Shown here: one piece after another, positions 27,059 through 37,175 of the stretch
Numbering within the stretch: the first letter of the stretch is position 1
Layout of the letters: the number at the start of each line of letters is the position of its first letter
DNA from: Gammaproteobacteria bacterium
GTDB lineage: Bacteria; Pseudomonadota; Gammaproteobacteria; Eutrophobiales; Eutrophobiaceae
Direction: 5' to 3'
NCBI GenBank assembly: GCA_965222155.1
Contig: CBDCTH010000012.1
Coordinates: 1,696,001 to 1,760,000 of the forward strand
DNA length: 64,000 bases
Notes under the pieces: generated by a model
Databases searched by the model: none
What the model saw: only the letters and a program-made list of their open reading frames with translations
Told to the model about the DNA's origin: nothing
Translations under genes and position numbers: made by a program

Positions 27059-29449
27059 TCAGTGGTTCCCCGGACCCAGACATTCCAGTACGACATCTTC
27101 AGGCGGCAGACAAATCTCATCGTCACAGGCCTGCAACCGTATTTTGATGTCTATCCTCCGGTCACTGTAATCTTCCATATCCGGCGCGGGACTCAATGTT
27201 AAGGCTATATCAATACTGTCATCATAAAGAGCGAGTTTATCGTCTTCAAAAGACAACTTTTTAAGCCGGGGGCGGGGATAGAAAATTTTTGTCAATTCCC
27301 ATTGGCTGCGTTTTCCCGCGATTTTTATGTCCAGCGGAATGAGGTTTTCATGTCCGGGTTTGTAAGCACTAACATGCCACCCGGGTGAGATATCAAGATT
27401 GAGTTTAATATTGTGGTTATGATCCATATCCCGTGCCGTTAACTTTACCTCTCCGCGAGCCGCATATTCTGAAGCGCCTGCAGTATTGTTTAACAATTCA
27501 TCGACGCCAACCATAAAATAAGGATAGGTTCCGGGGTGTTCGTCCATGACCGTGGAAAAGGACTGAATTAATTGAACAGCAAGATTTTCATAATCCCAAT
27601 CCTTGACACGGCTTGACAGGCTCACCAGGACATGCAGTGCCGCGGAATTTCCGGAAGGAATATCACTGTCGCGTAATTGTTTCGGCACGACAAAAAGTGT
27701 GTCCTTGTCTTCACTCATATAAAAGCCGCCGGTGTCGGTATCCCAGAATTTGTCAATCATGGTCCTGGTTAATTCCACGGCGCGCTGCAGCCATAGCCGT
27801 TCTCCGGTGGCATCATAAAGCGCAATCAATCCGCCGGCGAAATAAGCATAGTCATCCTGCGTTGCTATACTGGAGGGTCGGCCGTCATAATTGACACGCA
27901 ACAAAGTACCGTCATTCATTCGCTGGTGTTTCCAGAGAAACTCGGCAGTTTCTATAGCGGCTTCCAGATATTCCCCGCGCTTCAGTATTTGCGCCGACAT
28001 CGCCAACACCGTGATCACCATGCCGTTCCAGGCCACCAGGATTTTTTTATCCACCAGTGGTGGCGGGCGTTTCACTCTTTCCTGGCGAAGTCTTTCCCGA
28101 ATGCCGTCCAGTCTTGAGATTAAATCCTGCTCATTGATATTCATAGTTTTTGCTACTTCAGACAATTCGTCGGCCAGATACAAAATATTTCTCCCATTGA
28201 AGTTGCCTTTTTCCGTAAGGCCAAAAACCGCTTGCGCCAGCACTGCATCTTCGCCCGGGAGAGAATTTTTAACTTCATCAATGGTCCACGTGTAAAAGCG
28301 ACCTTCTTCTCCCGCGCTTTCCGCGTCGCTTGCCGAATAAAAGCCGCCTGCGGGAGACGCCATATCGCGTAAAATATAATTCATTGTCTGCTCCGCGATA
28401 CGCGCAAAAAACCCGTTGCCGGTATACTGATAAGCGGTCAGGTAAACCCTGGCCATACTGGCTTGGTGGTACAGCATTTTTTCAAAATGCGGCAGCAACC
28501 AGTATGCGTCAGTAGAATAGCGATGAAACCCGCCGGCTATCTGGTCATACAATCCGCCACGAGCCATCATCGTCAGGGTATGTTCCATAGCGTCTATGGT
28601 TTCCGTATCGATGTTCCGGTAACTGTGTTGCAGCAATAACATCAGGGAAGATTCATGGGTAAACTTGGGCGCGCTGCCAAAGCCTCCCCACTGTTTATCG
28701 TAGTGCGATAAAATATCGGAAACGGCATTTTGCACAAGTTCGGGGCCGATAACCGCTACTCTACTCTGAGCCTGAACGGAATTCTCGACAGCATCGGCTA
28801 TCTTTGCCGCCAACAGGCTCAAATCATCCTGCTGTGCCTCCCACATGTCCCTGATCTGCTTGAGTATTTCCAGGAACTCTTGCGGCGGATAATAGGTGCC
28901 GGAATAAAACGGTTTCCCATCGTACGTCAAGAAACTCGACAGGGGCCAACCGCCTTGCCCTTTCGTCAACATCAGTGCAGACATATATATTTCATCGATA
29001 TCGGGCCGCCTTTCCCGGTCCACTTTGACGGGGATAAAATGTTTGTTCAGATAGCGGGCAATTTCAATATTTTCAAAACTTTCTCTTTCCATGACGTGAC
29101 ACCAGTGGCATGTGGAATAACCAATTGACAAAAACACGGGTTTGTTTTCTTTTTTGGCCTGTTTAAACGCTTCAGTTCCCCATGCATACCAGTTCACCGG
29201 GTTATGCGCATGTTGTAACAGATAGGGCGAGTCCTCCAGGATTAATCGGTTCGTAAACATTGGCTGACCATCTTTATCCAGATGTCTGGTCCTGGGCAGG
29301 TAGTCCTCGCCTTTATTTATGAGTGCGTGTTTCAGATCTGATTGCAGTTGTGTGGATGTAACTGTATTTCCAGGCAAATTGTCAGCCGTCACTACATGGC
29401 TCAGACAAACTGCCAGCACATAGATTATTAATCGATAAACGCCACTCAC
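27059..29449 (-). CDS. Thioredoxin-domain YyaL/SPATA20 (DUF255) protein with signal peptide and C-terminal DsbD-N-like domain
   Basis: [41 protein letters not shown]-terminal GWH...[11 protein letters not shown]. Confidence 0.88.
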
Positions 29450-29482
29450 ACTAAGTAATCAGTTGGTCTGTATCCTCTGCGG

Positions 29483-30085
29483 CTAAGGATTGTCAGATGT
29501 TATAGCCTGGGATTCGGGATAAAGTGAAGCGATATTCACTGCCTTCGGTTCAACAATACACACTTCTCTGCACAAGCCACAGCCTGTACAGAGTTCAGGA
29601 TTGATACTGGGCTTTTCCATATCCCAGGTCATCGCCCCGGCGACAGGGCAGGCCGATTTGCAGACGCCACACTCCGGCCCCAGGTAAGGCAAACAGCTTG
29701 ACGTATCGATCTCTGCATACGCGAGTTTTGGTAATGGTAGCCCGGCATCTTCATCGGGGACAGGAAGCTGGAGTGCTTTTGGTTCACAGGCATTGACACA
29801 AGGCCAGTCATCACAGAGATGGCAACCCTTATTCAGTATATCCAGCGCAGGCGTACCCACAACCTGTGCGCCAAGTCTCGCCGGTAATTTAAAGATGACA
29901 TCATGCGGACAAACCTCAATACACTTATCACATCTGGTGCAGGCAAGCAGGAATTCCAACTCAGCACGGGCAAAAGGAGGCCGAATCCAGTGCCTGGCGC
30001 GTTGCGCAACGGTTTCGTCTGCAAGCTGAACAGCCAGTTTTGCAGCTTTTTGTAGGCCTGTTCTAAAAAAATCACGCCTGTCCAT
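29483..30085 (-). CDS. NapG/MauM-like 4Fe-4S polyferredoxin
   Basis: MDRRDFF, IRPP, CTRCDKCIEVCP, CHLCDDWPCVNAC, CTGCGLCREVC. Confidence 0.85.
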   Translation of the reverse strand: MDRRDFFRTGLQKAAKLAVQLADETVAQRARHWIRPPFARAELEFLLACTRCDKCIEVCPHDVIFKLPARLGAQVVGTPALDILNKGCHLCDDWPCVNACEPKALQLPVPDEDAGLPLPKLAYAEIDTSSCLPYLGPECGVCKSACPVAGAMTWDMEKPSINPELCTGCGLCREVCIVEPKAVNIASLYPESQAITSDNP

Positions 30086-36503: not shown

Positions 36504-36512
36504 AACCTTCTC

Positions 36513-37175
36513 CTAATGAGTTTGTTTTGCTAATTCGCGCATATAAACAATTATGTCGTCGATTTCTTTATCGGTAAGGTTCGCCAATCCTGCGGCACCG
36601 GAGAAACCTCGCATGCGAGTATTGGAACGGCCATGCTTTATCGTAGTACGGAGAAATCCATCGGAGGCCTTATTGAGAAAACCAGCTTTGCCAATTGCGG
36701 TACCGGTACCACCAGCGATATAGCCATCACCCTGATAACCATGACAGGTAGCACAAATCCGGTCGAACCAGAACTTCCCTGCCTTGGGATCTCCCAGGGC
36801 TGCAGGTTGATTATCAATTTCTGTGGATTTGTCAGGTAATTCCGAATGGGATTTAAGGTATATGCCTATAGCTTCGATGCCTTCCGGCTCCAAATGAGTA
36901 AAAGGCGGCATTCCTGTGCCCGGGCGTCCATCACGAATTGTTCCCAGTAGAAATTCGTCTGATACGGCAGATAGAAATTCAGCGTTGGTGAGTGATGGCG
37001 CAAATCCCACTTTTCCTATGGCATCTGCTTGATGACAAAATATGCAGTTCCTCTCATATAAATCTTTTCCCTTTGCAATCATCAGGGAATCATCAGAAAC
37101 TGCGGCTGTCGGAAATAACAGACAAGAAAACATCAGAATCTTCGTCCTGGTGAGAAATCTTCTAATATTTTTCAT
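36513..37175 (-). CDS. Dihaem class I c-type cytochrome
   Basis: Signal peptide, CIFCH and CATCH, distal Met motifs GTGMPPF and NTRMRGF. Start taken at MKNIRR (GAGGG upstream). Confidence 0.88.
   Translation of the reverse strand: MKNIRRFLTRTKILMFSCLLFPTAAVSDDSLMIAKGKDLYERNCIFCHQADAIGKVGFAPSLTNAEFLSAVSDEFLLGTIRDGRPGTGMPPFTHLEPEGIEAIGIYLKSHSELPDKSTEIDNQPAALGDPKAGKFWFDRICATCHGYQGDGYIAGGTGTAIGKAGFLNKASDGFLRTTIKHGRSNTRMRGFSGAAGLANLTDKEIDDIIVYMRELAKQTH

Follow-up and report, generated by a model that had tools for sequence, protein, structure and literature searches.

The window analysed here, 64,000 nucleotides of contig CBDCTH010000012.1 (assembly GCA_965222155.1, positions 1,696,001 to 1,760,000) from a gammaproteobacterium of the family Eutrophobiaceae, carries an operon resembling those for periplasmic nitrate reductase (Nap). 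The initial annotation described eight tightly packed, co-oriented genes, and this is what the sequence holds: all eight open reading frames (ORFs) are present on the minus strand, spanning positions 27059-37235 with inter-gene gaps of -4 to 55 nt. In the order of transcription we refer to them as cyt, Mo, G1, H1, HH, H2, G2 and DUF255-DsbD_N. Gene calls were based on Pfam and NCBIfam profile searches; the two databases back every call except that of HH, which has no family match in either of them.

The first gene, cyt (36513..37175; all coordinates of the operon are on the minus strand), encodes a dihaem class I (c4-like) cytochrome c with a general secretion signal, recognized by PF13442 and PF00034. 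Its ORF runs 36513-37235, and the true start is likely to be the ATG at 37175, which has a GAGGG ribosome site ahead of it and is also the end coordinate of the initial annotation. Next is Mo (33813..36503), encoding an 896-aa catalytic subunit of the molybdenum-bis(pyranopterin guanine dinucleotide) (Mo-bisPGD) type that is exported by twin-arginine translocation (Tat; PF04879, PF00384, PF01568). It is followed by G1 (33170..33757; NF007012), a NapG-like periplasmic poly-[4Fe-4S] ferredoxin with a Tat signal, and by H1 (32199..33158; TIGR02163), a NapH-like membrane protein. HH (31608..32192) encodes an exported protein of 194 aa with a predicted beta-sandwich fold and a C-terminal membrane helix; its stop overlaps by 4 nt with the start of H2 (30091..31611; PF12801, Fer4_5), a second NapH-like membrane polyferredoxin of 506 aa. 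The product of G2 (29483..30085) is a NapF/NapG-like ferredoxin, called with the NapG and napF profiles; the ORF runs 29483-30127, and comparison with 39 homologues makes 30085 (MDRRDFF) the most likely start. The operon ends with DUF255-DsbD_N (27059..29449; PF03190, PF11412), an exported fusion protein of 796 aa. All eight genes are under purifying selection, with ratios of nonsynonymous to synonymous substitution rates (dN/dS) of 0.04-0.27 against two congeners. The GC content of the region (26000-38000) is 45-49%, whereas that of the flanks is 52-56%.

The Mo enzyme is best explained, on sequence comparison, as a member of a conserved and unnamed periplasmic Mo-bisPGD family, related to NapA, Nas/NarB and FdhF and distinct from each of them. 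Its Tat motif is RRDFLK, and the iron-sulfur motif CPYCGVGCG...CIKG, a Cys motif with Lys, is retained. The Mo-ligand Cys is followed by Met (RMCMTSAV), the same pair as in Nap and Nas, against Cys-His in the FdhA rows; an Arg that aligns with the NapA Arg is kept within GERF. Judged by these residues, the active site is of the nitrate-reductase type. The closest solved structures are NapA chains, at 217-238 bits (2nya, 237.6 bits), and after them FdhF. Curated profiles do not name the enzyme: the NapA models give 299 bits (TIGR01706, cut-off 930.55) and 316.4 bits (NF010055, cut-off 904), and the formate dehydrogenase alpha model TIGR01591 gives 317.3 bits against a cut-off of 666.25, level with the NapA score. 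The assimilatory models score lower, at 261.8 bits for NasA (cut-off 1000) and 215.8 bits for NasC (cut-off 1100).

Several named assignments were considered for the enzyme and rejected. Nas/NarB was set aside on the presence of the Tat motif and on NasA and NasC scores far below the cut-offs, and formate dehydrogenase alpha on a score below its cut-off and on the Cys-Met ligand, where three FdhA rows have Cys-His. Canonical NapA was discarded with both cut-offs missed, a position outside the NapA clade and no NapB or NapD in the genome.

Phylogenetic analysis used 60 representatives labelled with NCBIfam, from which a quick maximum-likelihood tree of 59 rows was calculated. The family and its three nearest relatives (P0121, P0122 and P0126) form one clade with a support of 95, and this clade lies outside a 45-row group (support 100) that comprises the NapA clade (12 rows, support 100), the Nas-like rows and FdhA. 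By the approximately unbiased (AU) test, joining the family and the Nap rows in a single clade lowers the log-likelihood by 26.6 and is not rejected (p 0.159), so that the tree places the family only tentatively as the sister of Nap, Nas and Fdh together. What the sequence comparisons do establish, in keeping with the separate architecture proposed in the initial annotation, is that the enzyme is not nested in canonical NapA: it falls outside a clade with 100% support and reaches 299-316 bits where the cut-offs are 904-930. Identity of the family to the NapA-group rows aligned with it is at most 36%, and among 1.84 billion representatives the nearest relatives outside the family are 53%, 49% (Microaerobacter geothermalis) and 40% identical, with all others at or below 38%. 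In two metagenome loci a Mo gene with 73-79% identity to P0121, and with about 49% to the window enzyme, precedes NapH-like and NapG-like genes; a dihaem cytochrome gene lies upstream in one of them, and the contig of the other starts inside the Mo gene. By eye, an ORF between the NapH-like and NapG-like genes of a distant-relative locus (L097:3785-4420) looks like a REP-associated (IS200-like) tyrosine transposase.

The family is widespread and, over three proteobacterial classes, conserved to an unusual degree. Of 8000 candidates from a word-indexed protein search, 7163 have E <= 0.001, and the top 120 are all 81-97% identical over their full length; among contigs from one genome per species 156 of 163 pattern matches encode a relative. 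Comparisons of loci rest on the best 80 of these 156 relatives, which are 78-97% identical to the window enzyme and come from Alpha-, Beta- and Gammaproteobacteria. Gammaproteobacterial carriers include the cultured Photobacterium indicum and P. profundum, and metagenome-assembled genomes (MAGs) assigned by name to Sulfuriflexus, Thiogranum, Thiohalobacter, Motiliproteus, Arenicellales and Candidatus Parabeggiatoa; those from the Alphaproteobacteria belong to the Hyphomicrobiaceae, Kiloniellaceae and Rhodospirillaceae, and those from the Betaproteobacteria to the Rhodocyclaceae, the Hydrogenophilales and Tepidiphilus. Thousands of metagenomic matches add to these, including Tara proteins and records whose names refer to oxygen-poor waters, vents or sponges. 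In the source records, proteins of the family are labelled "selenocysteine-containing dehydrogenase" or "ferredoxin-nitrate reductase." A full-text search of the accessible literature found no description of the family, in line with the proposal that the system was undescribed; in the parts available, PMC10609526, PMC5052931, PMC3475470 and PMC12780646 concern other Nap variants or a chlorate reductase clade and not this Mo family.

Gene content was compared in the 49 of the 80 loci that extend at least 7.5 kb downstream and at least 0.8 kb upstream of the Mo gene (the "long loci"). Among these cyt is present in 49, G1 in 46, H1 in 47, HH in 48, H2 in 37, G2 in 45 and a DUF255 homologue in 12; cyt stands directly upstream of the Mo gene in every one of the 49, and the order G1, H1, HH, (H2), G2 is kept in 43, across three proteobacterial classes. 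The core of the proposed gene order is therefore conserved; HH (48/49), H2 (37/49) and G2 (45/49) recur in it, and the DUF255 fusion (12/49) is not part of it. Nor are eight genes the norm of the family, although they are the set found in this genome: most relatives have a third NapG-like ferredoxin between H1 and HH, and in 39 of the 80 loci a NapC/NirT tetrahaem cytochrome is encoded upstream of cyt or after G2 (e.g., L074:18003-18677, 242.8 bits). The lack of NapC, put forward as a trait of the system, thus holds for the window's genus and not for the family. Without the third ferredoxin and the NapC/NirT gene, the genus has a reduced version of the operon, and the same reduced gene set is found in the congener loci L017, L019, L020 and L022. 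Of the other 22 genomes in the genus, 11 carry the Mo gene, and this distribution, together with the low GC content, points to acquisition, or repeated loss, of the operon as an island.

Given the reported absence of napB, napC and napD, the whole genome (4.55 Mb, rated 100% complete) was searched for them. There were no matches to NapB (PF03892), NapD (PF03927) or NapC/NirT (PF03264) anywhere in it, and an Escherichia coli control matched both PF03927 and PF03892; the absence claimed from the window alone extends to the genome. A six-frame genome search found no canonical NapA above cut-off, the best match being the operon's own enzyme at 234.5 bits, and NarG was found in none of the 23 genomes of the genus. 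With no NarG and no canonical NapA, the Mo enzyme would be the only nitrate-type reductase of this genome, whose other large Mo enzyme is a NAD-type formate dehydrogenase subunit. A cbb3 oxidase was not found in the genome.

Class I c domains occur twice in cyt (PF13442, 71.1 bits; PF00034, 66.8 bits), which does not match NapB (PF03892), and 58 aligned homologues keep both CxxCH motifs and both Met ligand motifs; by domain content and gene order, cyt is the protein that occupies the place of NapB in canonical Nap. NapG is the best-scoring family for G1, NapH for H1 and NapF for G2, all of them below the curated cut-offs: G1 reaches 147.5 bits on NapG NF007012 (cut-off 269), H1 157.3 bits against 213 (TIGR02163) and 152 against 234 on the NapH models, and G2 106.4 bits on NapG (cut-off 269) and 68.5 bits on napF (cut-off 102). 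Motifs of H1 that are conserved across 57 homologues are CGWICPA, FCRYxCPGG and two of the 4Fe-4S Cys type. In 38 of 44 G1 homologues RRxF[LIVMF] is followed by a hydrophobic stretch, the signature of a true Tat signal. In 39 of 39 G2 homologues the twin-arginine motif (MDRRxFF) leads into a charged stretch instead of the hydrophobic one of a signal peptide, so that G2 is probably cytoplasmic; we take this pattern to be that of the cytoplasmic NapF.

The remaining three proteins, HH, H2 and DUF255-DsbD_N, appear from their sequences to be accessories. The mature N-terminus of HH, HHVLGRP, is invariant, with H24 and H25 present in 31 of 31 sequences. An AlphaFold2 model built from the alignment is a beta-sandwich with a predicted local distance difference test (pLDDT) score of 86.5, whereas the fold from the single sequence is poor (pLDDT 51). 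Foldseek ranks PmoD and the copper protein CrdA first for this model (E ~5e-4), and an exhaustive structure aligner gives CrdA at Z 11.8, HftA (iron- and copper-bound) at 10.1, Tp34 at 9.3 and FtrA-P19 at 9.1, in a ranking in which generic immunoglobulin-like domains reach Z 9-10.6 and are nearly level with the metal-protein matches. The Atlas names the HH cluster "YtkA-like." As a lead from the model, HH looks like a membrane-tethered metal-binding protein.

A Fer4_5 domain is the only one found in H2 (PF12801, 29.7 bits; NapH, 28.5 bits), whose N-terminal half is NapH-like, with the conserved motifs MxMTHPGLP, CxxCPW and FCRYFCPVGRT and two 4Fe-4S motifs. To this is added a C-terminal multi-helix domain with conserved His and Met (YHxAHNLxH, NPLG, QPMxMR), which in the Atlas falls in unnamed clusters only, at 0.89 or lower. 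The 12 of 49 long loci without H2 keep HH, and HH can therefore not depend on H2 alone.

DUF255-DsbD_N scores over the cut-offs of its two families (PF03190, 231.8 bits against 27; PF11412, 32.6 bits against 25) and consists of a signal peptide, a YyaL-type thioredoxin-like domain with CHWC, a six-hairpin region and DsbD_N. Present in 12 of the 49 long loci, it is an occasional accessory of the operon and not part of its core; its dN/dS is 0.16-0.19. Compared with its nearest relative (L017:17019-19397), the fusion gene has a synonymous divergence (dS) of 0.71 and 75% protein identity, whereas the other seven genes differ from those of L017 by dS 0.11-0.21 and are 91-96% identical, a contrast at the 3' end of the operon that suggests a recombination boundary or an allele exchange. 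In the Motiliproteus MAG loci that lack H2 (L041, L053 and L058), a protein with a weak DUF255 match (23-26% identity) is encoded on the opposite strand, about 3-5 kb upstream of the Mo gene, and the 713-aa ORF of L041 has a DsbD transmembrane domain; judged from these loci, thiol-redox accessories may alternate with H2.

Upstream of cyt, sites for predicted FNR-type and, in some lineages, NarL-type control are enriched in the relatives of the operon. In 27 of 75 loci the 400 bp ahead of cyt contain an FNR-type box (TTGAT-N4-ATCAA, at most one mismatch). Perfect boxes are about 33-fold denser upstream of cyt than elsewhere: 13 fall in 34,155 upstream bases and 15 in the other 1,305,146 bases. 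In five of the 80 loci a kinase (PilJ-HAMP-GAF-HisKA_3, with NarQ/NarX as best family) and a response regulator adjoin the operon, the pair being divergent from cyt in three of the five; the one such regulator that was scanned scores 297.8 bits on NarL (cut-off 250). A 7-2-7 palindrome of TACCAC-type heptamers, which we take to be the NarL/NarP type of site, is common to the three divergent intergenic regions, and a strict NarL heptamer regular expression found no match in these three regions. A relaxed 7-2-7 pattern is found six times in 1.34 Mb of loci, five of them within the 34 kb upstream of cyt, two of which lie in loci without adjacent narXL; since the pattern was derived from three of the five sites, only two are independent. 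Other neighbours are a Crp/Fnr-family regulator in four loci, MoaA in seven and an Rrf2-family regulator in three. The last of these (NsrR/RirA-like) stands upstream in L024, L037 and L043, and a globin and a Fer2/FAD/NAD reductase are encoded near the operon in the sulfur-oxidiser loci L037, L052 and L065; globin, reductase and Rrf2 regulator together could be a nitrosative-stress set. In the window, a consensus scan yields a weak sigma-70-like site upstream of cyt, TTGACC-17-CAGAAT at 37203..37231 on the minus strand, with TG before the second hexamer, and as such sites are not above chance in the region, this is only a candidate promoter.

Comparison with known systems shows which elements are shared. 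The enterobacterial napFDAGHBC operon (E. coli NapA, 2nya) likewise encodes a Tat-exported Mo-bisPGD/[4Fe-4S] subunit with Cys-Met and Arg, together with counterparts of the NapG-, NapH- and NapF-like partners, and its NapC has NapC/NirT counterparts in many relatives of the operon; it differs in having NapB and NapD, where the operon has a class I c4-like dihaem cytochrome as partner, and in having no counterparts of HH, H2 and the DUF255 fusion. The NapC-independent systems of the Epsilonproteobacteria, reportedly ordered napAGHBFLD, send electrons through NapGH without NapC, as would the operon of the window's genome. A cytochrome bc complex possibly contributes to Epsilonproteobacterial Nap (PMC6195509), and the window's genome has cytochrome c1. 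These systems differ from the operon in keeping NapB, NapD, NapL and a canonical long NapA (1312 bits for row P0243, against 316 for the window enzyme).

The monomeric NapA systems, such as napCMADGH of Desulfovibrio, resemble the operon in having no NapB and in drawing electrons from NapC and/or NapGH in the periplasm. They retain NapD, however, and their NapA is short, about 750 aa, and falls with the Nap clade, whereas the operon has no NapD, an 896-aa enzyme with family-specific inserts and a dedicated dihaem cytochrome; Sporomusa ovata napGHCAD is described in PMC12780646 as such a monomeric system with NapD. A parallel for the electron module is offered by the nos cluster of Wolinella, in which NosG-NosC1-NosC2-NosH form an electron module for NosZ (PMC3475470): here too NapG-like and NapH-like proteins and class I c haem domains feed a periplasmic terminal reductase. 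The likeness is by domain type, and the Wolinella module serves a copper enzyme and has two monohaem proteins in place of the one dihaem protein of the operon. For HH, the likeness is to P19/FtrA and CrdA, which share its beta-sandwich fold; the FtrA/P19 operons (ftrAPBCD) include the membrane polyferredoxin FtrD (PMC7415376), so that HH adjoins the polyferredoxin H2 as FtrA does FtrD. There is no sequence match, and the comparison covers the fold only; the operon has no Ftr1-type permease or cupredoxin, and HH differs from the Ftr systems in its invariant N-terminal His-His and its C-terminal membrane helix.

Taking these observations together, we propose that the operon functions in low-oxygen respiration, reducing nitrate to nitrite in the periplasm, a reading to which we give a probability of about 0.58. 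In relatives the FNR-type boxes speak for control by low oxygen, and the adjoining NarX/Q-like kinase and NarL, with the NarL-type sites, for control by nitrate or nitrite. Under this proposal the NapH-like H1 would oxidise quinol and pass electrons to the Tat-exported, NapG-like G1, and from there to the c4-like dihaem cytochrome replacing NapB, with a bc1 complex as a possible second input to the cytochrome; the cytochrome would deliver them through the [4Fe-4S] cluster to the Cys-ligated Mo centre of the 896-aa enzyme and on to nitrate. G2 would be a probable cytoplasmic NapF-like helper that matures the enzyme before export, taking the place of NapD/NapF because there is no NapD. The route from NapH through NapG and the dihaem cytochrome to the Mo enzyme had been suggested in the initial annotation and fits the domain content and the signal peptides; the substrate, the direction of electron flow and the route itself we infer from the sequences.

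A number of observations weigh against this proposal. The Mo enzyme reaches one third of the NapA cut-offs and scores equally on the formate dehydrogenase model, and residues typical of NapA are changed, with DTPP for DEP, R-F for R-E, Ile for a Met and CPYC for CRFC. Neither the nearly universal HH nor the H2 module has a role in any known Nap system. Upstream of cyt in the window itself there is neither an FNR-type nor a NarL-type site. The window's genome has no NirB over the cut-off, no cd1 NirS and no NrfA, and NirK, found in one of the 23 genomes of the genus, is not in this one; with no recognised nitrite reductase, nitrite would be the end product here if the Mo enzyme reduces nitrate. 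Finally, canonical NapA over the cut-off was found in three of the five carrier genomes tested, namely P. indicum (two copies), a Motiliproteus MAG and a Tepidiphilus MAG. This coexistence means that the family is not simply a replacement of Nap, and it argues for a non-redundant role.

Some of these points would be accommodated if the same architecture, working in the same direction, acted on another high-potential oxyanion or oxide, such as chlorate, iodate or selenate. The position of the family outside the NapA, Nas and Fdh groups, the changed surroundings of the active site, the co-presence of canonical NapA in carriers and a genome without a nitrite reductase to use the product of nitrate reduction all favour such a substrate, and a class I cytochrome with His/Met ligation would presumably suit a high-potential acceptor as donor. 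Yet the Cys-Met and Arg of nitrate reductases are retained, several lineages have narX/narL genes and NarL-type sites next to the operon, and among the scanned flanking clusters with at least three members there is no chlorite dismutase, peroxidase or other substrate-specific partner; we regard a different oxyanion as possible and, on balance, rather unlikely. More speculative, and in our view doubtful, is an extension in which HH and H2 would form a copper/iron-handling redox module that couples, for instance, Fe(II) or Cu(I) oxidation to oxyanion reduction, in a third class of nitrate-type reductase.

We also think it improbable that electrons run the opposite way, from a periplasmic dehydrogenase to the dihaem cytochrome, with G1 and H1 reversed towards the quinone pool, although the formate dehydrogenase model scores 317 bits where the NapA model gives 316, many carriers are sulfur-oxidising lithotrophs by their record titles, and class I dihaem cytochromes often take electrons from periplasmic dehydrogenases. 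Against such an oxidative role stand the Mo ligand, Cys-Met rather than the Cys-His of the three FdhA rows, and FNR-type and NarL-type control typical of terminal reductases; in addition, NapC/NirT and NapGH are known as quinol dehydrogenases. An ordinary, divergent NapA operon with no functional difference, beside which the extra genes are unrelated neighbours, could be argued from 2nya as the best solved-structure match (237.6 bits) and from the AU test, which leaves a clade of Nap and the family standing at p 0.159. This appears very improbable when NapB and NapD are missing from the genome, when the cytochrome, HH and G2 occur in order in 45-49 of the 49 long loci, and when the family, 78-97% identical over three classes and at most 36% identical to the NapA-group rows, coexists with canonical NapA. 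Decay of a recently acquired island into a non-functional remnant would fit the GC contrast with the flanks, an adjoining broken MoCoBD gene, the absence of the relatives' NapC-like gene and third ferredoxin, and the presence of the Mo gene in half (11/22) of the other congeners; with all eight frames intact, dN/dS at 0.04-0.27 against the two congeners and the same reduced gene set in the four congener loci, we consider it extremely improbable.

If the enzyme reduces nitrate, as we propose, then gene-based surveys overlook a step from nitrate to nitrite in marine and symbiotic bacteria living at low oxygen; the curated nitrate-reductase profiles do not name the family, and standard nitrogen-cycle gene surveys therefore do not name it either. 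Were the substrate other than nitrate, the operon would mark an unrecognised respiration, and the coupling to metal oxidation, if true, would be an enzymatic route of the sort that has long been looked for to explain how iron- and sulfur-oxidising bacteria oxidise metals with nitrate. Either way, the operon brings a dihaem cytochrome as an alternative to NapB and, in HH and H2, two conserved proteins without a known role, and the cultured carriers Photobacterium profundum and P. indicum make the family testable.

The neighbourhood of the operon holds further Mo-related genes. Directly upstream, at 37416-38289 on the minus strand, two short ORFs, of 153 and 141 aa, each match a different part of MoCoBD_2, and the upstream ORF has a twin-arginine, lipoprotein-like leader (MHSRRRQFLK...); the pair look like the remnant of a broken gene of the aldehyde-oxidase/IorB type. 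On the other side the operon is flanked (13286-27037) by a cluster of the form II CO-dehydrogenase/xanthine-dehydrogenase type: a CoxLMS-like molybdo-flavo-iron-sulfur dehydrogenase set (768, 160 and 288 aa) with CoxG, followed by a CN-hydrolase, an amidohydrolase, CobW, UbiD, an AAA ATPase and a von Willebrand factor A (VWA) CoxE-like protein. Further away, at 57866-60001 on the minus strand, a second Mo-bisPGD enzyme of 711 aa falls below all curated cut-offs, its best matches being Fdh-alpha (330 bits) and PhsA (298 bits). Between the two Mo-bisPGD genes, the region 42116-52952 encodes a PemK/MazF-like toxin ORF, a ResIII helicase of 1015 aa, an N6/N4 DNA methylase of 699 aa, a UvrD-like helicase, also of 699 aa, and a MmeI-helicase-spacer protein, and is probably a restriction-modification or defence island.

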